A stretch of DNA of 64,000 nt from Pristiophorus japonicus (lineage: Eukaryota): contig NC_091985.1 in the NCBI RefSeq assembly GCF_044704955.1, forward strand, positions 96,224,001 to 96,288,000, read 5' to 3'. Of this stretch, positions 5,374 through 58,200 are shown in pieces. The notes beneath the pieces are model-generated. The model was given only the letters and a program-made list of their open reading frames with translations, was not told the origin of the DNA and made no database searches. Numbering within the stretch: position 1 is the stretch's first letter; every line of letters begins with the position of its first letter. A program made the position numbers and the translations under genes.

Positions 5374-6160
5374 TGTAAGACTTATCTTTTATAAGAACAA
5401 GTTTTTATCCTGTAAAATTTTGTCTTGTTCTTTTCACTAAACAGAGTCAAGATTATTTACGACTTGACTCTCCACTTTCAGAGTTCAAACTTGTTAGACA
5501 AAACAAGACACAGGATGTTTCTTTTTCTCACCCTTATCCAGGGGTTATCTTTACTTAAAATAGTCAAAGGAAATACAAGCAATTTACGATAGCATCAAAT
5601 GCACAATCATTTCTTAATTATTAGCTCGCACTAACCGATCCCGTTAAATCCCTTCTAATGGTTAAAATCACCTATACCATAATTGATTAAAAGAAACAAA
5701 GACACTCACACCAGACCATGGTCAGTGATTGTAAGAATTAACCCCCTGATTCTCTTGGCCACTAACCAGGTTGCCAGTACTCTTGACTGTCGCACCTATC
5801 TCACATGTTACAGCTATTTTATATCCTTTTTCTGGGATGTTTGCCCATCATGTGCATAATTAAAACAAAAGGAATATTCTTAAACAAATTCTTCCCATGA
5901 ATAGAGGTCTTGTCATTTCTTATCACCATAGTTGCAGATTTCTTCACAGTTCGTAGACAATTCAAGGACGTCTCTTACAACCTGTGAAAATGTCTCTACG
6001 CAGCTGTGAGCTGTTAAAACTCATGAGAAAGTCTTTTGACTTCGCACAGTATTGTGGGTCATTAAAAAATGGTCAAGTCGTGTTTTCAGCCACCTTGGAG
6101 CAGTTTGCAAGCACAGTTTTTAGCAGAAAAATGAGACAAAAAAAATGCTGTAGTCTTACA
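5374..6160 (-). mobile_element. Solo LTR (787 bp, probably ERV-like)
   Basis: Ends TGTAAGACT...AGTCTTACA; 4-bp TSD GCAT/GTAT; it interrupts CR1 sequence; minus-strand TATAAAA at ~5817-5823 is the only basis for orientation. Confidence 0.78.
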
Positions 6161-44734: not shown

Positions 44735-45682
44735 ATGGCAGGACAGCTCGGTCATGTGATATGCTCCTCCTGTACCATGTGGGAACACGGGGACAACACC
44801 AGTGTCCCTGACGACTACATGTGCGGGAAGTGTGTCCACCTCCGGCTACTGACGGTCCGCGTTGCGGAGTTGGAGCTGAAGGTGGATTCACTCTGGAGCA
44901 TCCACGATGCTGAGAATGACGTGAGTATCACGTGTAGCGAATTGGTCTTACCGCAGGAGAAGGGTCCACAGCCAGCGAGGGAATGGAAGACCAGCAGGAA
45001 GAGTAGTGCAAGGAAGGTAGTGCAGGGGTCCCCTGTGGTCATCCCACTGCGAAACAGATACACTGCTTTGAGTGCTGTTGAGGGGGATGACTCATCAGGA
45101 GCGGGCAGCAGCAGCCAAGTTCATGGCACCATGGCTGGCTCTGTTGCACAGGAGGGCAGGAAAAAGAGTGGGCGAGCGACAGTGATAGGGGATTCAATTG
45201 TAAGGGGAATAGATAGGCGTTTCTGCGGCCGCAACCGAGACTCCAGGATGGTATGTTGCCTCCCTGGTGCAAGGGTCAAGGATGTCTCGGAGCGAGTGCA
45301 GGACATTCTAAAAAGGGAGGGAGAACAGCCAGTTGTCGTGGTGCACGTTGGTACCAATGACATAGGTAAAAAAAGGGATGAGTTCCTACGAAATGAATTT
45401 AAGGAGCTAGGAGCTAAATTAAAAAGTAGGACCTCAAAAGTAGTAATCTCGGGATTGCTACCAGTGCCACGTGCTAGTCAGAGTAGGAATCGCAGGATAG
45501 CTCAGATGAATACGTGGCTTGAGCAATGGTGCAGCAGGGAGGGATTCAAATTCCTGGGGCATTGGAACCGGTTCTGGGGGAGGTGGGACCAGTACAATCC
45601 GGACGGTCTGCACCTGGGCAGAATCGGAACCAATGTCCTCGGGGGAGTGTTTGCTAGTGCTGTTGGGGAGGAGTTAAACTAA
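44735..45682 (+). CDS. CR1 ORF1p: Zn finger, leucine zipper, SGNH/GDSL esterase
   Basis: 315 aa open; CSSC...CGKC, heptad leucines, IGDSIV, HVGTND and DGLHL motifs. Confidence 0.93.
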   Translation: MAGQLGHVICSSCTMWEHGDNTSVPDDYMCGKCVHLRLLTVRVAELELKVDSLWSIHDAENDVSITCSELVLPQEKGPQPAREWKTSRKSSARKVVQGSPVVIPLRNRYTALSAVEGDDSSGAGSSSQVHGTMAGSVAQEGRKKSGRATVIGDSIVRGIDRRFCGRNRDSRMVCCLPGARVKDVSERVQDILKREGEQPVVVVHVGTNDIGKKRDEFLRNEFKELGAKLKSRTSKVVISGLLPVPRASQSRNRRIAQMNTWLEQWCSREGFKFLGHWNRFWGRWDQYNPDGLHLGRIGTNVLGGVFASAVGEELN

Positions 45683-45759
45683 TATGGCAGGGGGATGGGA
45701 ACCAATGCAGGGAGATAGAGGGAAACAAAAAGGAGGCAAAAACAAAAGACAGAAAGGAG

Positions 45760-48663
45760 ATGAGGAAAAGTGGAGGGCAGAGAAACCCAAGGCAAAGAAC
45801 AAAAAGGGCCATTGTACAGCAAAATTCTAAAAGGACAGAGGGTGTTAAAAAAACAAGCCTAAAGGCTTTGTGTCTTAATGCAAGGAGTATCCGCAATAAG
45901 GTGGATGAATTAACTGTGCAAATAGATGTTAACAAATATGATGTGATTGGGATTACGGAGACGTGGCTCCAGGATGATCAGGGCTGGGAACTCAACATCC
46001 AGGGGTATTCAACATTCAGGAAGGATAGAATAAAAGGAAAAGGAGGTGGGGTAGCATTGCTGGTTAAGGAGGAGATTAAGGCAATAGTTAGGAAGGACAT
46101 TAGCTTGGATGATGTGGAATCTATATGGGTAGAGCTGCAGAACACCAAAGGGCAAAAAACGTTAGTGGGAGTTGTGTACAGACCTCCAAACAGTAGTAGT
46201 GATGTTGGGGAGGGCATCAAACATGAAATTAGGGGTGCGTGCAATAAAGGTGCAGCAGTTATAATGGGTGACTTTAATATGCACATAGATTGGGCTAACC
46301 AAACTGGAAGCAATACGGTGGAGGAGGATTTTCTGGAGTGCATAAGGGATGGTTTTTTAGACCAATATGTCGAGGAACCAACTAGGGGGGAGGCCATCTT
46401 AGACTGGGTGTTATGTAATGAGAGAGGATTAATTAGCAATCTCGTTGTGCGAGGCCCCTTGGGGAAGAGTGACCATAATATGGTGGAATTCTGCATTGGG
46501 ATGGAGAATGAAACAGTTAATTCAGAGACCATGGTCCAGAACTTAAAGAAGGCTAACTTTGAAGGTATGAGGCGTGAATTGGCTGGGATGGATTGGCGAA
46601 TGATACTTAAGGGGTTGACTGTGGATGGGCAATGGCAGACATTTAGAGACCGCATGGATGAACTACAACAATTGTACATTCCTGTCTGACATAAAAATAA
46701 AAAAGGGAAGGTGGCTCAACCGTGGCTATCAAGGGAAATCAGGGATAGTATTAAAGCCAAGGAAGTGGCATACAAATTGGCCAGAAATAGCAGCGAACCT
46801 GGGGACTGGGAGAAATTTAGAACTCAGCAGAGGAGGACAAAGGGTTTGATTAGGGCAGGGAAAATGGAGTATGAGAAGAAGCTTGCAGGGAACATTAAGA
46901 CGGATTGCAAAAGTTTCTATAGATATGTAAAGAGAAAAAGGTTAGTAAAGACAAACGTAGGTCCCCTGCAGTCAGAATCAGGGGAAGTCATAACGGGGAA
47001 CAAAGAAATGGCTGACCAATTGAACAAGTACTTTGGTTCGGTATTCACGAAGGAGGACACGAACAACCTTCCGGTTATAAAAGGGGTCAGGGGGTCTAGT
47101 AAGGAGGAGGAACTGAGGGAAATCCTTATTAGCCGGGAAATTGTGTTGGGGAAATTGATGGGATTGAAGGCCGATAAATCCCCAGGGCCTGATGGACTGC
47201 ATCCCAGAGTACTTAAGGTGGCCTTGGAAATAACGGATGCATTGACAGTCATTTTCCAACATTCCATTGACTCTGGATCAGTTCCTATCGAGTGCAGGGT
47301 AGCCAATGTAACCCCACTTTTTAAAAAAGGAGGGAGAGAGAAAACAGGGAATTATAGACCGGTCAGCCTGACATCAGTAGTGGGTAAAATGATGGAATCA
47401 ATTATTAAGGATGTCATAGCAGCGCATTTGGAAAGAGGTGACATGATAGTTCCAAGTCAGCATGGATTTGTGAAAGGGAAATCATGCTTGACAAATCTTC
47501 TGGAATATTTTGAGGATGTTTCCAGTAGAGTGGACAAGGGAGAACCAGTTGATTTGGTATATTTGGACTTTCAGAAGGCTTTCGACAAGGTCCCACATAA
47601 GAGATTAATGTGCAAAGTTAAAGTACATGGGATTAGGGGTAGTGTGCTGCCATGGATTGAGAACTGGTTGTCAGACAGGAAGCAAAGAGTAGGAGTAAAT
47701 GGGTACTTTTCAGAATGGCAGGCAGTGACTAGTGGGGTACCGCAAGGTTCTGTGCTGGGGCCCCAGCTGTTTACACTGTACATTAATGATTTAGATGAGG
47801 GGGTTAAATGTAGTATCTCCAAATTTGCGGATGACACTAAGTTGGGTGGCAGTGTGAGCTGCGAGGAGGATGCTGTGAGGCTGCAGAGCGACTTGGATAG
47901 GTTAGGTGAGTGGGCAAATGCATGGCAGATGAAGTATAATGTGGATAAATGTGAGGTTATCCACTTTGGTGGTAAAAACAGAGAGACAGACTATTATCTG
48001 AATGGTGACAGATTAGGAAAAGGGGAGGTGCAAAGAGACCTGGGTGTCATGGTACATCAGTCATTGAAGGTTGGCATGCAGGTGCAGCAGGCGGTTAAGA
48101 AAGCAAATGGCATGTTGGCCTTCATAGCAAGGGGATTTGAGTACAGGGGCAGGGAGGTGTTGCTACAGTTGTACAGGGCATTGGTGAGGCCACACCTGGA
48201 GTACTGTGTACAGTTTTGGTCTCTTAACCTGAGGAAGGACATTCTTGCTATTGAGGGAGTGCAGCGAAGGTTCACCAGACTGATTCCCGGGATGGCGGGA
48301 CTGACCTATCAAGAAAGACTGGATCAACTGGGCTTGTATTCACTGGAGTTCAGAAGAATGAGAGGGGACCTCATAGAAACATTTAAAATTCTGACGGGGT
48401 TAGACAGGTTAGATGCAGGAAGAATGTTCCCAATGTTGGGGAAGTCCAGAACCAGGGGTCACAGTCTAAGGATAAGGGGTAAGCCATTTAGGACCGAGAT
48501 GCGGAGGAACTTCTTCACCCAGAGAGTGGTGAACCTGTGGAATTCTCTACCACAGAAAGTTGTTGAGGCCAATTCACTAAATATATTCAAAAAGGAGTTA
48601 GATGAGGTCCTTACTACTAGGGGGATCAAGGGGTATGGCGAGAAAGCAGGAATGGGGTACTGA
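45760..48663 (+). pseudogene. CR1 ORF2p (APE endonuclease + reverse transcriptase) with a single in-frame TGA
   Basis: ORFs 45760-46689 and 46711-48663 are in the same frame; the TGA at 46687-46689 is W in sister copies; LNARS, ITETW, GDFN, SDHN, PQGS and FADD motifs are present. Confidence 0.93.
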
Positions 48664-50329
48664 AGTTGAATGTTCAGCCATGAACTCATTGAATGGCGGT
48701 GCAGGCTAGAAGGGCCGAATGGCCTACTCCTGCACCTATTTTCTATGTTTCTATGTTTCTATGTAATACAGATTGAGGGTGAGGAAGTAGTGTCTCAAAC
48801 GAATGTACTATGCTTAAACAAAGGGGACTACAGTGAGATGAGGGCAGATTTGGCTGAAGTAGACTGGAAACACAGACTAAACGGTGGCACAATTGAGGAA
48901 CAGTGGAGGACTTTTAAGGAGCTCTTTCATAGTGCTCAACAAAAATATATTCCAGTGAAAAAGAAAGGTGGTAAGAGAAGGGATAACCAGCCGTGGATAA
49001 CCAAGGAAATAAAGGAGAGTATCAAATTAAAAATCAATGCGTATAAGGTGGCCAAGGTTAGTGGGAAACTAGAAGATTGGGAACATTTTAAACAACAGCA
49101 AAGAATGACTAAGAAAGCAATAAAGAAAGGAAAGATAGATTACGAAAGTAAACTTGCGCAAAACATAAAAACAAATGGTAAAAGCTTTTACAGATATATA
49201 AAACGAAAAAGACTGATTAAAGTAAATGTTGGTCCCTTAGAAGATGAGAAGGGGGATTTAATAATGGGAAATGTGGAAATGGCTGAGACCTTAAACAATT
49301 ATTTTGCTTTGGTCTTCACAGTGGAAGACACAAAAGCCATGCCAAAAATTGCTGGTCACGGGAATGTGGGAAGGGAGGACCTTGAGATAATCACTATCAC
49401 TAGCGGGGTAGTGCTGGACAGGCTAATGGGACTCAAGGTAGACAAGTCCCCTGGTCCTGATGAAATGCATCCCAGGGTATTAAAAGAGATGGCGGAAGTT
49501 ATAGCAGATGCATTCGTTATAATCTACCAAAATTCTCTGGACTCTGGGGAGGTACCAGCGGATTGGAAAGCAGCTAATGTAACGCCTCTGTTTAAAAAAG
49601 GGGGCAGACAAAAGGCAGGTAACTAGAGGCCGGTAAGTTTAACATCTGTAGTGGGGAAAGTGCTTGAAACTATCATCAAGGAAGAAATAGCGGGACATCT
49701 AGACAGGAATAGTGCAATCAAGCAGACACAACATAGATTCATGAAGGGGAAATCATGTTTAACTAATTTACTGGAATTCTTTGAGGATATAACGAGCATG
49801 GTGGATAGAGGTGTACTGATGGATGTGATGTATTTAGATTTCTAAAAGGCATTCGATAAGGTGCCACACAAAAGGTTACTGCAGAAGATAAAGGTACGCG
49901 GAGTCAGAGGAAATGTATTAGCATGGATAGAGAATTGGCTGCCGAACAGAAAGCAGAGAGTCGGGATAAATGGGTCCTTTTCGGGTTGGAAATCGGTGGT
50001 TAGTGGTGTGCCACAGGGATCGGTGCTGGGACCACAACTGTTTACAATATACATAGATGACCTGGAAGAGGGGATAGAGTGTAGTGTAACAAAATTTGCA
50101 GATGACACAAAGATTAGTGGGAAAGCGGGTTATGTAGAGGACACAGAGAGGCTGCAAAGAGAATTAGATAGGTTAAGCGAGTGGGCTAAGGTTTGGCAGA
50201 TGGAATACAATGTCGGAAAATGTGAGGTCATCCACCTTGGAAAAAAACAGTAAAAGGGAATATTATTTGAATGGGGAGAAATTACAACATGCTGCGGTGC
50301 AGAGGGACCTGGGGGTCCTTGTGCATGAA

Positions 50330-51741
50330 ACTCTTTTTGGAGTTCACCTGCAAAAACATAAAACATTAAACGGTGCCACCCGACCTGGGTGACACTCCAG
50401 ACATTTACAAGGCCCTTTTTTTTTCCCCCTTTTTTTTGTGTTTTTCTTTTTTTGTTTTTCTTTTTTTGGTTTTTTTTTTGGGCACTAAAATCACAATTTT
50501 CCCCAGTGCCCCCTATAAAAGGAAAGGGGGACACTAAAAGCACCGGCAATTAAAACAAATTAAACTTAAAAACGTAAAATCAAATTAAAATTTGGTTGCC
50601 GGGCGTGATGATGCACTCCAGTCCCTCCGGTGCCCACCTCTCGCGGAAGGCCGCGAGTGTACCGGTGGACACCGCGTGCTCCATCTCCAAGGACACCCTG
50701 GACCGGATGTAAGAGCGGAAGAGAGGCAGGCAGTCAGGTTGAACGACCCCCTCGACCGCCCGCTGCCTGGACCGGCTGATGGCATCCTTGGCCGTGTACC
50801 AGGAGCAGTCCTACGAGGAGGCCCTCGGACCTACCCGCTCCCCTCAGCACAGGGTGCCCAAAGATCAGGAGAGTGGGACTGAAGTGCAGCCAGAATTTCA
50901 GGAGCAGCCCCTTCAAATAATAAAACAGGGGCTGCAACCTTGTGCATTCCATAAAAACATGGAACACGGACTCTTCCAGACCGCAGAAATTGCAGGCGGC
51001 CTGGGACTCCGTGAACCGGCTTAAAAATTTGTTGCACGGCACTGCTCCGTGCACCACCCTCCAGGCCAAGTCCCCGATGAATAGTGGGAGGACCCCTGCG
51101 TAGAGTGCCCTCCATCGGGGACCCCCGCCTCCTCCGGACGGCAAGATGGTACGCCATGGCGTGTCTGGACGGCCGGCGAGGATGGCAAAGTTGAGGGTGT
51201 GCAGGAGCAGCCCGTACAGGAAACCCCTCCGCGCGGAACTGAAAGGCACGGAGGGGATTTCCCCGAGGCGGCTCAAGTTGTGAGGCGCCGGCCCCCGAGG
51301 GAGGTTCCGGGGTTTGGCGCCGATGAGGAATTCCGTCCGGACGGGGGTCAGTTCGGACGGGATCTCCCCACGTGCTTGAGCCTCCTCGATGCACCTAACG
51401 GAGTCAGGGCCCAGAGCTGTTTTTAGCGACTCGATGGCATCGGCCGCGTGGCGGACGTTGGCAGAATTTAGGCGCCGCGCCAGCGTGTCTGGCGCCATCC
51501 AGCCCGCTCCTCCGCCATCGAGCAGGTCCCTGACCCTGGTCACCTCACCAGCCACAGCCCTCTCTTCCGACCGCCACATAAAACCTCGGCCGTGGAGGTA
51601 CGGATTCCCGAGCAGCGGTTCCTGCAGGACGGCCGCCACTCCAGCCGGCGGAGAGCTGCGCTTGGTGGAGACTTTGTTCCAGACCCTGATGAGTTCCCTG
51701 TAAAAGACAGGCAGCTCCCGGAGGGCGGTCCTGGCACCCCC
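50330..51741 (-). mobile_element. Tx1/L1-clade non-LTR retrotransposon, 5'-truncated (ORF2 C-terminal Zn finger + 3' UTR)
   Basis: GDLAWRVVHGAV...CNFCGLEESVFHVFMEC (zf-RVT type); stop at ~50580 after one frameshift; A-rich 3' UTR; 14-bp TSD TCCTTGTG(C/T)ATGAA at 50316-50329 / 51742-51755. Confidence 0.9.
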
Positions 51742-52812
51742 TCCTTGTGTATGAATCCCAAAAAGTTAGTTTGCAGGTGCAGCAGGTAATCAGGAAGGCG
51801 AATGGAATGTTGGCCTTCATTGCGAGAGGGATGGAGTACAAAAGCAGGGAGGTACTGCTGCAACTGTAGAGGGTATTGGTAAGGCCACACCTGGAGTACT
51901 GCGTGCAGTTTTGGTCACCTTACTTAAGGAAGGATATACTAGCTTTGGAGGGGGTACAGAGATGATTCACTCAGCTGATTCCGGAGATGAGGGGGTTACC
52001 TTATGATGATAGATTGAGTAGACTGGGTCTTTACTCGTTGGAGTTCAGAAGGATGAGGGGTGATCTGATAGAAACATTTAAAATAATGAAAGGGATAGAC
52101 AAGATAGAGGCAGAGAGGTTGTTTCTACTGGTCGGGGAGACTAGAACTAGGGGGCACAGCCTCAAAATACGGGGGAGCCAATTTAAAGCCGAGTTGAGAA
52201 GGAATTTCTTCTCCCAGAGTGTTGCGAATCTGTGGAATTCTCTGCCCAAGGAAGCAGTTGAGGCTAGCTCATTGAATGTATTCAAATCACAGATAGATAG
52301 ATTTTTAACCAATAAGGGAATTAAGGGTTACGGGAAGCGGGCGGGTAAATGGAACTGAGTCAACGGCCAGATCAGCCATATCTTGTTGAATGGCGGAGCA
52401 GGCTCGAGGGGCTAGATGGCCTCTTCCTGTTCCTAATTCTTATGTTCTTATGTTCTTATGTAATCCTCATAAAACTGTGTGCTTGTTCCGCCTGCTGCTC
52501 TCTGGCCAAAGAGAATAAAATGTATTCCACTCTCTTGGAATACAGAGCTTCAGTTATCTCCGTGATGCAACAGTGGAAGATGTTGCAAATATGTCCTGCT
52601 CCAGTCTGGAAGGAGCCCGATGCATAAAAGGTCATGGCCACCGTGACCTTCACAGCCAGTGGAAATGCGGTCTTCGTTCTACTTAGGTTGCAATTGTGGC
52701 TGCAGCAGGTGGCAGATTTCAGTGAGAATGTCCGTGGTGAAGCGCAGACGCCTGTCACTGTTGCTCGCTGAGGTTCAGGTAGTATTGCTCCTTGAAAACC
52801 TTGGGTGGATAG

Positions 52813-54460
52813 GGGGGGCTGAAATTCAGGTGCTGATTTTTTAGCTGGTAGTCACCGCTGGAACTCTTGGTGCAGTGAGTTAATACATTTTCAGGTCTTT
52901 GAATTTTTTTACAAATCCTACAAGAAATGGATCATAATGGGGGGCGGGCCTTAGACTCAAAGCCAGGCTGACTGGCTGAAAATGGGTCGTTGGGGCGTCC
53001 GCTGCTGTTAATCAACGTGGTGACATCACAGCGCGGGTGCGTCACCATGCTCTTTCCCCTCCGTTAAAGGGGAGAGATTTGATCATTTTTTCACTTTGGC
53101 CATTAGGCCACCAGGGAGAAACATAGAAAATAGGTGCAGGAGTAGGCCATTCGGCCCTTCGAGTCTGCACCGCCATTCAACGAGTTCATGGCTGAACATG
53201 CAACTTCAGTACCCCGTTCCTGCTTTCTCGCCATAGCCCTTGATCCCCCTAGTATAAGGACTACATCTAACTCCTTCTTGAATATATTTAGTGAATTGGC
53301 CTCAACAACTTTCTGTGGTCGAGAATTCCACACGTTCACCACTCTCTGGGTGAAGAAGTTTCTTCTCATCTCGGTCCTAAATGGCTTACTCCTTATCCTT
53401 AGACTGTGACCCCTGCTTCTGGACTTCCCCAACATTGGGAACATTCTTTCTGCATCTACCCTGTCTAAACCCGTCAGAATTTTAAACGTTTCTATGAGAT
53501 CCCCTCTCATTCGTCTGAACTCCAGTGAATACAAGCCCAGTTGATCCAGTCTTTCTTGATATGTCAGTCCCGCCATCCTGGGAATCAGTCTGGTGAACCT
53601 TCGCTGCACTCCCTCAATAGCAAGAACATCCTTCCTCAAGTTAGGAGACCAAAACTGTACACAATACTCCAGGTGTGGCCTCACCAAGGCCCTGTACAAC
53701 TGTAGTAACACCTCCCTGCCCCTGTACTCAAATCCCCTCGCTATGAAGGTCAACATGCCATTTGCTTTCCTAACCGCCTGCTGTACCTGCATGCCAACCT
53801 TCAATGACTGATGTACCATGACACCCAGGTCTCGTTGCACCTCCCCTTTTCCTAATTTGTCACCATTCAGATAATAGTCTGTCTCTCTGTTTTTACCACC
53901 AAAGTGGATAACCTCACATTTATCCACATTATACTTCATCTGCCATGCATTTGCCCACTCACCTAACCTATCCAAGTCACTCTGCAGTCTCATAGCATGC
54001 TCCTCGAAGCTCACACTGCCACCCAACTTCGTGTCATCCGCAAATTTGGAGATATTACATTTAATCCCCTCGTCTAAATCATTAATGTACAGTGTAAACA
54101 GCTGGGGCCCCAGCACAGAACCTTGCGGTACCCCATGAGTCACTGCCTGCCATTCTGAAAAATACCCATTAACTCCTACTCTTTACTTCCTGTCTGCCAA
54201 CCAGTTCTCAATCCACGTCAGCACACTACCCCCAATCCCATGTGCTTTAACTTTGCACATTAATCTCTTACGTGGGAGTTTAGGCCGGCCCAGCGGCCTG
54301 GCATCCAAGAGAGGGTGCCAGGCTGCCCGTTGGCGGCCTGGCCGAACCCAGGTGGAAATTTTTGCCGTCCAATTGGCAAGTCGGCTGCCAAAATTGTTTT
54401 TATTGCGGCCGCAGCAATAGGCCCTTCCCTTTAAGGGCGGCGCGCTGCCTTTGGTCATCC
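52813..54460. mobile_element. Second copy of the 655-1441 MITE family, interrupted by a CR1 and truncated on the right
   Basis: Begins GGGGGCTGAAATTCAGGT; shares TTAAAGGGGAGAG...GGCCACCAGGGAG...GCCTGGCATCCAAGAG with 890-1070. Confidence 0.78.
53119..54273 (-). mobile_element. Young 5'-truncated CR1
   Basis: ORF 53103-54143 encodes the RT C-terminal half; TSD GGGAG at 53114-53118 / 54274-54278. Confidence 0.93.
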
Positions 54461-54461
54461 G

Positions 54462-54580
54462 TCCTAATATCTCCTTTTGTGGCTCTGTATTAAATTTTGG
54501 TTTCTTAACGCTCCTGTGAAGCGCCTTTGGGATGTTTTATTATGTTAAAGGTGCTATATAAATGCAAGTCATTGTTGTTT
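54462..54580 (+). mobile_element. L2/SINE 3' tail fragment
   Basis: CCTGTGAAGCGCCTTTGGGATG...AAAGGTGCTATATAAATGCAAG followed by (TTG)n. Confidence 0.7.
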
Positions 54581-55212: not shown

Positions 55213-58200
55213 AGAAATATAGAAACATAGAAAGTAGGTGCAGGAGCAGGCCATTCGGCCCTTCGAGCCTGCACCACCATTCAATATGATCATGGCTGAT
55301 CATCCAACTTCAGTACCCCATTCCTGCTTTCCCTCCATACCCCTTGATCCCTTTAGCCGTAAGGGCCACATCTAACTCCCTTTTGAATATATCTAACGAA
55401 CTGGCCTCAACAACTTTCTGTGGTCGAGAATTCCACAGGTTCACAATTCTCTGAGTGAAGAAGTTTCTCCTCATCTCGGTCCTAAATGGCTTACCCCTTA
55501 TCCTTAGACTGTGACCCCTGGTTCTGGATTTCCCCAACATCGGGAACATTCTTCCTGCATAAAATCTGTCCAATCCCGTCAGAATTTTATATGTTTCTAT
55601 GAGATCCCCTCTCATTCTTCTAAATTCCAGTGAATATAAGCCTAGTCGATCCAGTCTTTCTTCATATGTCAGTCCTGCCATCCCGGGAATCAGTCTGGAA
55701 ACCTTCGTTACACTCCCTCAATAGCAAGAATGTCCTTCCTCAGATTAGGAGACAAAACTGCACACAATACTCAAGGTGTGGTCTCAACATGCCCTGTACA
55801 ACTGCAGTAAGACTTTCCTGCTCCTATACTCAAATCCCTTTGTTATGAAGGCCAGCATGCCATTAGCTTTCTTCACCGTCTGCTGTACCTGCATGCCTAC
55901 CTTCAATGACTGATGTACCATGACACCCAGGTCTCATTGCACCTCCCTTTTTACTAATCTGTCACCATTCAGATAATAATCTGCCTTCCTGTCTTTGCCA
56001 CCAAAGTGGATAACCTCACATTATCCACATTATACTGCATCTGCCATGCATTTGCCCATTCACCTAACCTGTCCAAGTCCGCTTGCAGCCTCCTAGCATC
56101 CTCCTCACAGCTCACACTGCCACCCAGCTTAGTGTCATCTGCAAACTTGGAGATATTACACTCAATTCCTTCGTCTAAATCATTAATATATATTGTAAAT
56201 AGCTGGGGTCCCAGCACTGAACCCTGCGGCACCACACTAGTCACTGCCTGCCATTCTGAAAAGGACCCGTTTATTCCCACTCTTTGCTTCCTGTCTGCCA
56301 ACCAGTTCTCTATCCACGTCAATACATTACCCCCAATACCATGTGCCTTAATTTTGCACACTAATCTCTTGTGTGGGACCTTGTCAAAAGCCTTTTGAAA
56401 GTCCAAATACACCACATCCACTGGTTCTCCCTTATCCACTCTATTCGTTACATCCTCAAAAAACTCTAGAAGATTTGTCAAGCATGATTTCCCTTTCATA
56501 AATCCATGCTGACTTGGACCGATCCTGTCACTGCTTTCCAAATGCGCTGCTATTACATCTTGAATAATTGATTCCAACATTTTCCCCACTACTGATGTCA
56601 GGCTAACCAGTCTATAATTCCTGGTTTTCTCTCTCCCTCCTTTTTTAAAAAGTGGGGTTACATTACCTACCCTCCAATCCATAGGAACTGAACCAGAGTC
56701 CATGGAATGTTGGAAAATGACCAGCAATGCATCTACTATTTCAAGGGCCACTTCCTTAAGTACTCTGGGATGCAGACTATCAGGCCCTAGGGATTTATCG
56801 GCCTTCAGTTCCTTCAATTTCCCTAACACAATTTCCTGACTAATAAAGAATTTCCCTCAGTTTCCCCTTCTCGCTAGACCCTCGGTCCCCTAGTATTTTC
56901 GGGAGGTTATTTGTGTCTTCCTTAGTGAAGACAGAACCAAAATATTTGTTCAATTGGTCTGCCATTTCCTTGTTCCCCATTATGAATTCCCCTGATTCTG
57001 AGTGCAAGGGACCTACATTAGTCTTCACTAATCTTTTTCTCTTCACATATCTATCGAAGCTTTTGCAGTCAGTTTTTATGTTCCCTGCAAGCTTAATCTC
57101 ATACTCTATTTTCCCCCTCCTAATTAAACCCTTCGTCCTCCTCTGCTGAATTCTAAATTTCTCCCACTCCTCAGGTTTGCTGCTTTTTCTGGCCAATTTA
57201 TATGCCTGTTCCTTGGATTTAACACTTTCCCTAATTTCCCTTGTTAGCCACGGTTGAGCCACCTTCCCTTTTTTATTCTTACGCCACACAGGGATGTACA
57301 ATTGTTGTATTTCATCCATGTGATATTTAAATATCTACCATGGCCTATCCACCGTCAACCCTTTTAGTACCATTCTCAATTCTATCCTAGCCAATTTACA
57401 TCTCATACCGTCGAAGTTTCCTTTCTTTAAGTTCAGGACCCTAGTCTCTGAATTAACTGTGTCACTCTCCATCTTAATGAAGAATTCTACCATATTATGG
57501 TCACTCTTCCCCAAGGGGCCCCTCACGACCAGATTGGTAATTAATCCTCTCTCGTTACACAAGACCCAGTCTAGGATGGCCTGCTCTCTAGTTGGTTCCT
57601 CGACATATTGGTCTAGAAAACCATCCCTTATACACTCCAGGAAATCCTCCTCCACAGTATTGCCCAATCAATATGCAGATTAAAGTTACCCATGATAACT
57701 GCTGTACCCTTACTGCACATGTCCCTAATTTCCTGTTTGATGCCATCCCCAACCTCCCTACTACTATTTGGTGGTCTGTACGCAACTCCCACTAACGTTT
57801 TCTGTCCTTTGGTGTTTCGCAGCTCTACCCATATAGATTCCACATCATCCACGCTAATGTCCTTCTTTACTATTGCGTTAATCTCCTCTTTAACCAGTAA
57901 CGCTATCCCACCTCCTTTTCCTTCCTGTCTGTCCTTCCTGAATATTGAATACCCCTGGATGTTGAGTTCCCAGCCTTGGTTACCCTGGAGCTATGTATCG
58001 GTAATCCCAATTACATCATATCCATTAACAGCTATCTGAGCAGTCAATTCATCCACCTTATTACGAATGCTCCTTGCATTGAGACTCAGAGCCTTCAGGC
58101 TTGTTTTTTTAACACTCTTTGACCTTTTAGAATTATGTTGTAATGTGGCCCTTTTTGATTTTTGCCCTTGATTTCTCTGTCCTCCACTCTTGCATTTCTC
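55213..58200 (-). mobile_element. CR1 with nearly complete but frameshifted ORF2
   Basis: ORFs 57628-57852, 57335-57667, 56840-57319, 55969-56829 and 55310-55681; tail AGAAACATAG at ~55213-55230. Confidence 0.93.

Follow-up and report, generated by a model that had tools for sequence, protein, structure and literature searches.

The window, i.e. the whole stretch of 64,000 nt of DNA analysed here, holds a truncated copy of a Tx1 LINE whose preferred target is a single position of CR1, entered in antisense orientation. ORF2p of this LINE likely chooses the position by two DNA words, CA[C/G][C/G]TG (CASSTG) on the upstream side, ~24 nt away, and T(T)CA where the nick is made, an explanation to which we give a probability of about 0.65. 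Target sites outside CR1 keep CASSTG and do not keep an 8-nt match between the RNA end and CR1, and a sister family shares the word; therefore, target choice is most likely a two-part protein readout.

In the window, a 1,412-nt insert (50330-51741, - strand) interrupts the RT-coding part of a + strand CR1-type LINE between TSD copies at 50316-50329 and 51742-51755. The 3' end of the insert is without poly(A) and reads, as RNA, TTTGCAGGTG (50354-50345), AACT, CCAAAAAG (50340-50333) and AGT. CR1 contains both segments in swapped order, i.e. CCAAAAAG at 51758-51765 and TTTGCAGGTG at 51770-51779. This 18-nt two-piece match is equalled by 7 of 19,498 random 30-mers from the window, which may all stem from one place, and the double match is nominally above chance. 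The earlier note on this DNA was accurate in placing the insert antisense in the RT-coding (ORF2) part of CR1, in describing an end without poly(A), and in reporting perfect 8-nt and 10-nt matches in swapped order; its 14-bp TSD stands in length, while the two copies are identical at 13/14 positions and thus not perfect. The features are as follows:

50330..51741, - strand: copy of a Tx1-clade LINE of 7.2 kb, 5'-truncated to its last ~1.41 kb and starting at about position 5780 of the full-length copy L034
50580..51741, - strand: C-terminal part of ORF2 with a CCHC-type zinc-binding motif (zf-RVT, E=1.6e-5, below the curated cut-off), in two frames with a frameshift near 50800; the frame is unbroken in L034
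50330..50579, - strand: 3' UTR without poly(A)
50373..50395, - strand: 9-bp stem-loop in the 3' UTR, also present in the sister family, where one base pair differs by a compensatory change
50345..50354, - strand: TTTGCAGGTG segment, variable among haplotypes with YAG alone constant, within a 7-9 nt stretch that the sister family lacks
50330..50343, - strand: terminal ACTC-(A-rich loop)-GAGT, which holds the 8-nt match; its AAAAGAGT end is common to the sister family
50316..50329, + strand: TSD at the 3' end of the element, the 3'-OH end being the putative TPRT primer
51742..51755, + strand: TSD at the 5' end of the element, with one mismatch
51774..51779, - strand: CACCTG word, the upstream half of the target; its start lies 24 nt from the nick
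51758..51765, + strand: CCAAAAAG in CR1, matching the RNA end and not conserved at off-target sites
48770..52460 (ends approximate), + strand: host CR1-type LINE split by the insertion, 5'-truncated, with a degraded RT frame and a TTCTTATG-type tail

The window also contains CR1-type copies of another subfamily (45658-48760, 53103-54536 and 55310-56856), including a 657-codon open RT frame (46690-48663); in the window's other CR1 family, no homologous target site was found within 12 mismatches. One 5'-end variant of the element resembles CR1 at 48897-48916 over 20 nt; a search with the L034 variant, allowing 4 mismatches, did not detect this likeness.

The full-length natural copy L034 spans 7,192 nt and contains two long frames (702 and 1,306 codons). 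In ORF2, Pfam detects APE, RT and a weak zinc motif. Among named proteins, ORF2 is closest to Xenopus laevis Tx1L ORF2 (YTX2), with 50% identity over 99% of the length; its closest partial protein matches reach 69-71% identity and suggest a cartilaginous fish as the likely host, and human L1 ORF2p (described in passages of PMC12503042) aligns to residues 3-862 only. The family displays the hallmarks of TPRT, i.e. a variable 5' truncation, a fixed 3' end and a TSD of 12-17 nt (mostly 14-15). Moreover, with 34 of 40 sampled regions at the CR1 site, its target preference exceeds the level of >20% of flanks of one type given for Tx1 in passages of PMC4494074. On every feature examined, the family is, as judged from its sequence, a member of the Tx1 clade, in agreement with the earlier assignment. 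Membership in the R2 clade was rejected, because the RLE nuclease and the N-terminal ZnF/Myb domains are absent from ORF2 as judged by Pfam.

The exact 22-nt terminus of the window copy occurs 2,504 times in the genome, and a looser 3'-end pattern detects 16,386 family ends (control 0); i.e. ~15% of the family ends carry the doubly matching terminus, and ~85% are without it in exact form, so that the double match does not characterise the family. At 6,088 ends, the next 22 bases are identical to the CR1 site; empty CR1 sites number at least 14,737, and the filled share is at most 29%. Of 40 regions picked by the 3' end alone from places with the exact terminus (the first ones and some later clusters), 34 have the element at the CR1 site, the other 6 lie elsewhere, and 153 first copies have 128 distinct 5' starts; therefore, these are independent insertions. 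The earlier suggestion of a family that parasitises one CR1 site is thus confirmed, and many copies with differing 5' truncations are present at this site as predicted; the accompanying prediction that all copies share the same terminal sequence failed, given that 2,504 of 16,386 ends have the exact 22 nt. In diverged CR1 subfamilies (L054, L064, L067, L072 and L083), CTTTTTGG is broken, CACCTG or CATCTG is intact, and the same position is used. In L046, where the CR1 site carries a deletion, the TSD still measures 14 nt.

Insertions outside CR1 were collected for three 3'-end haplotypes. For the haplotype of the window copy, 74 of 120 loci had a TSD and a visible upstream flank, and 51 sites were kept after removal of 9 CR1 variants, 5 sites with a TSD of <11 nt, 8 duplicates and 1 self-junction; two further haplotypes (CAGATA and CAGGTA ends; 30 loci each) provided 15 and 13 sites, giving a total of 79 non-CR1 sites. 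CASSTG starts 22-26 nt upstream of the nick at 44/79 of these sites, while six other 5-nt windows contain it 0-1 times and shuffling gives means of 0.06-0.19. The 44 words are tightly placed, with 39 in a 5-nt window (by definition) and most at 23-25, and they comprise both orientations and the palindrome (CACCTG 13, CAGGTG 13 and CAGCTG 18); the bases following the hexamer are flat. The strict word is missing at 35/79 sites.

The word is present at 27/51, 9/15 and 8/13 sites of the three haplotypes, and no site (0/79) has a match to the variant RNA words TATCTG/CAGATA or TACCTG/CAGGTA. At the 79 sites, the CAAA flank and the 8-nt match are not kept, and CTTTTTGG with ≤2 mismatches is at -10 in 4/79. 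At the nick, the T(T)CA or T-rich start of the TSD is partly imposed by the search patterns; among the 2,504 exact ends, 90 are followed by T and then not T, 78 by TTC and then not A, 227 by TTCA and then not T, and 153 by TTCAT and then not G. A TAAT/TGAT-like word lies at about -38 to -28 in the off-target flanks, and both the CR1 target and the LTR-like target have it too. Each of two further repeat families is struck repeatedly at one position (L130, L134, L137, L149, L192 and L266; L095, L101 and L113), and the first of these is without the strict CASSTG word.

About half of the sampled loci (20/39 by hand count, with copy-based sampling favouring arrays) hold head-to-tail copies that are split by the local TSD, including locally mutated versions of it (L046, L060 and L068). 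Arrays are also present at ≥15/79 off-target loci, with 2-6 copies each and ≥9 in L098. Where both neighbours are truncated, 51/79 pairs start within 3 nt of each other, compared to 99/11,628 (0.85%) independent pairs. Neighbours usually differ along their length at alleles that are also seen in other copies, often in the 3' haplotype, and a few pairs are identical in the coding part. Because neighbours share a start yet differ at sites that are polymorphic in the family, same-start neighbours likely derive from different RNAs and not from DNA duplication.

At two loci (L065 and L127), a shortened spacer is repeated upstream while the full TSD is kept downstream, and in L109 the TSD of the top copy consists of TTCA plus 12 nt of the resident copy. 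At these three loci, the arrays have grown at the upstream end. A length-asymmetry test of the growth direction gave 22/17 versus 25/12. Upstream and downstream copies have 64 and 68 private changes, respectively, i.e. they are equally old. CR1-type junctions inside an off-target array (L185) indicate read-through RNA. Mini-copies with 11-13 nt of the element end between TSDs (L083, L086, L089, L251 and L259) are like abortive repeated priming. In addition, two very long arrays of short copies (G000:C11:192858652-192890457 and G000:C5:223575798-223605521) lie at non-standard sites and pack dozens of ends into 30 kb; they may be DNA-level expansions.

A possible but less favoured account of the arrays is that each arises in one event, in which several RNAs serially prime at a single nick, and not by separate later visits. 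The equal age of neighbours and the 11-13 nt copies between TSDs would fit such an event, and so would the multi-copy off-target loci and the frequency of arrays in a family that fills at most 29% of CR1 sites. However, the junction in L109 implies a fresh second-strand cut within a finished resident copy, and hot spots together with easier joining at occupied sites could also yield an excess of arrays, which the copy-based sampling in itself favours.

The sister family comprises at least 1,468 copies, and its ORF2 pieces are mostly 85-95% identical to those of the CR1-targeting family. The two families share the 9-bp stem-loop of the 3' UTR, with the one compensatory change counting as one event, as well as the AAAAGAGT end. 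The 3' tail of the sister family is without CAGGTG and its nick word is TGT, often inside a ~270-nt LTR-like repeat that has TGTAAT...ATTACA ends and 5-nt flanking duplications; a preferred site is ~34 nt inside this repeat (L271-L320). Among 50 sister loci, 18 had an upstream flank and 13 were unique sites, and 7 of these 13 carry CANNTG at -23..-25, compared to a shuffle mean of 0.2 and a maximum of 4. At the CR1 site, there are three copies whose ends are sister-like and lack the CAGGT segment (L109 twice and L177), and, conversely, a copy of the CR1-targeting family sits in the site of the sister family (L202). Because a family without CAGGTG uses the upstream word and copies are found across sites, the upstream word is not derived from the RNA tail.

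Same-start arrays are also present in the sister family (L307, L311, L314 and L319). Self-targeting by the element's own CAGGTG was set aside, as this word lies at -21, varies among haplotypes and is absent in the array-forming sister family. Similarly, a terminal hairpin as a universal signal holds in the CR1-targeting family and fails in the poly-C ends of the sister family.

The CAG-containing stretch of 7-9 nt is present in the CR1-targeting family and not in the sister family, and its origin may involve CR1. We regard it as somewhat doubtful, and compatible with the two-word readout, that the stretch was copied once from the adjacent CR1 into an ancestral 3' end and has drifted since. The stretch resembles CR1 at 51770-51778, and copies without it are at the downstream end of two arrays; it is, however, short and lies in a hypervariable tract, with 83 haplotypes among 306 family ends, in which slippage could make it.

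For the two-word readout by ORF2p, we infer the following protein steps. ORF2p would bind the 3' UTR stem-loop, which is likely its RNA handle, and a region of the protein other than the active site of the endonuclease would hold the -24 word and set the distance. The APE domain would then nick at TTCA, or, in the sister family, at TGT with the upstream word kept. Reverse transcription would begin at the fixed AAAAGAGT end, and a few bases of read-through target RNA (past AAAAGAGU) probably aid priming by pairing with the primer. The other strand would be cut ~14-16 nt downstream irrespective of sequence. The upstream junction alone would retain the -24 word; because this junction keeps the whole target, it would be hit again and further copies would be added there. 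The new cDNA would often anneal to the 5' start of the resident copy and thereby reproduce the truncation point.

The main rival is a host E-box-binding factor that binds CASSTG and whose role would be either to tether or position the Tx1 complex or to make the chromatin accessible there. Host factors of this type include bHLH, ZEB or Snail proteins, and their genomic footprint would be identical. In line with a host factor, the word is an E-box-like pseudo-palindrome that is used in both orientations, and Pfam finds no domain in ORF2 that could read it, the APE, RT and weak zinc motifs being all that was detected; moreover, a TAAT-like word is within 10 nt upstream of CASSTG at 21/44 sites (shuffle mean 8.7, maximum 18; loose pattern, post hoc). 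However, open chromatin alone would not fix a distance, and the tight spacing between word and nick suits a ruler formed by one protein, as described for R2 in passages of PMC10499050. We therefore consider a host factor unlikely.

The earlier note had proposed that the last 25 nt of the RNA pair with the un-nicked target strand and thereby guide insertion. The match between RNA and target is real and rare by chance (7/19,498), its 10-nt piece spans the -24 word, and, of the two families, the CR1-targeting one alone has the CAG stretch. However, ~85% of the ends are without the exact terminus, CTTTTTGG is almost never conserved at -10 at off-target sites (4/79), the target word does not covary with the 3'-end haplotype, all three haplotypes using the same CASSTG word, and the sister family uses the upstream word despite lacking CAGGTG. 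Moreover, sister-like ends reach the CR1 site (L109 twice and L177), and the swapped order would demand that the target folds back. The guide segment is thus dispensable for site use, and RNA guidance, which would be categorically new if true, is unsupported and in our view highly improbable. The 8-nt match appears to reflect, for the most part, an end that the lineage inherited from its ancestor, whereas the 10-nt match is, as judged from the family ends, one haplotype of a variable stretch; with the two-word protein readout as the best explanation, it follows that the swapped double match is incidental. The remaining alternatives, i.e. a one-off filler made by end-joining repair or a single insertion passively amplified with CR1 or by DNA duplication, can be dismissed, even though some very long arrays (the C11 cluster) may be DNA-level expansions and a few adjacent pairs show zero difference in the coding region, because the identical terminus is found at unrelated sites that each have their own TSD, the 128 starts among 153 first copies are not the single shared 5' truncation that passive amplification would leave, and adjacent copies differ at alleles that are found in other copies too.

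RNA-guided insertion is exemplified by bridge RNA and by the exon-binding sites of group II introns. The sole likeness of the CR1-targeting family to such systems is a nominal RNA-target match in one haplotype; here, covariation is absent and the match is not required. Tx1L and other Tx1 families (Keno, Kibi, Koshi, Tx1-Mar, Tx1-8_Crp and Tx1-4_AMi) similarly have two ORFs and an APE-RT-zinc motif and insert into another transposon; the targets named in passages of PMC4494074 comprise DNA transposons, LTR elements, RNA genes, satellites and microsatellites, whereas the target here is a LINE, CR1. The same passages report tandem copies sandwiching a TSD for SINEU-3. The specificity of Tx1L is credited, in passages of PMC1919474, to an endonuclease that reads ~10 bp at the cut, whereas here a word 24 nt away matters.

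R2Bm, as described in passages of PMC10499050, has a comparable two-part target (RUM plus RASIN), in which one motif lies upstream at -34..-22, a short one lies at the nick, and the distance between them is constrained; the model is contrasted there with other LINEs in which the endonuclease alone picks the site. Like R2, the CR1-targeting family has an upstream motif whose distance to the nick is fixed and which the element's own protein would bind. Unlike R2, which has an RLE nuclease and N-terminal ZnF/Myb domains, it is of APE type and has no such domains by Pfam. Drosophila R1 in 28S rDNA is alike in its 14-bp TSD, TSD-separated arrays, growth at the 5' TSD (seen here at three loci) and 3' read-through that aids precise junctions (passages of PMC2718515); these passages do not describe neighbours that share a 5' truncation and derive from different RNAs, and, unlike R1, the CR1-targeting family uses a dispersed LINE as its target and occupies a low share of the sites. 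By analogy, the family would resemble R2 in how it reads its target and R1 in how it builds arrays, and it is not RNA-guided.

In a literature search, with Repbase and subscription papers outside its scope, no report was found of a CR1-targeting Tx1, of an E-box upstream of LINE nicks or of same-truncation arrays from different RNAs. We give even odds to the broader proposal of an APE-type vertebrate LINE lineage in which ORF2p would contain an R2-like upstream reader, with a CASSTG anchor at -24, a host switch (CR1 versus LTR-like repeat) by the nick word alone, and re-insertion via annealing of the cDNA to the resident 5' start. These data bear on two open questions, i.e. how an APE-type LINE with a nuclease that reads ~10 bp reaches site specificity and how 5' ends are joined. 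Natural insertions number in the thousands here and yield a target logo that includes a distant motif, and a natural pair of families with ~90% alike ORF2, a shared anchor and different nick words makes domain-swap tests direct. The arrays would record homology-assisted 5' joining and, if this is true, provide a genomic record of second-strand joining. A modular LINE with separate anchor and nick words would be useful for site-specific gene insertion, and the family clearly exemplifies how one LINE disables another on a large scale.

Finally, YAG is kept in all 83 haplotypes (81 CAG and 2 TAG; many ends were picked with CAG-holding patterns), and, among the 306 family ends, the end of the 3' UTR (50345-50372 in the window, - strand) resembles a splice acceptor, with TTTAAT, a pyrimidine tract and YAG.
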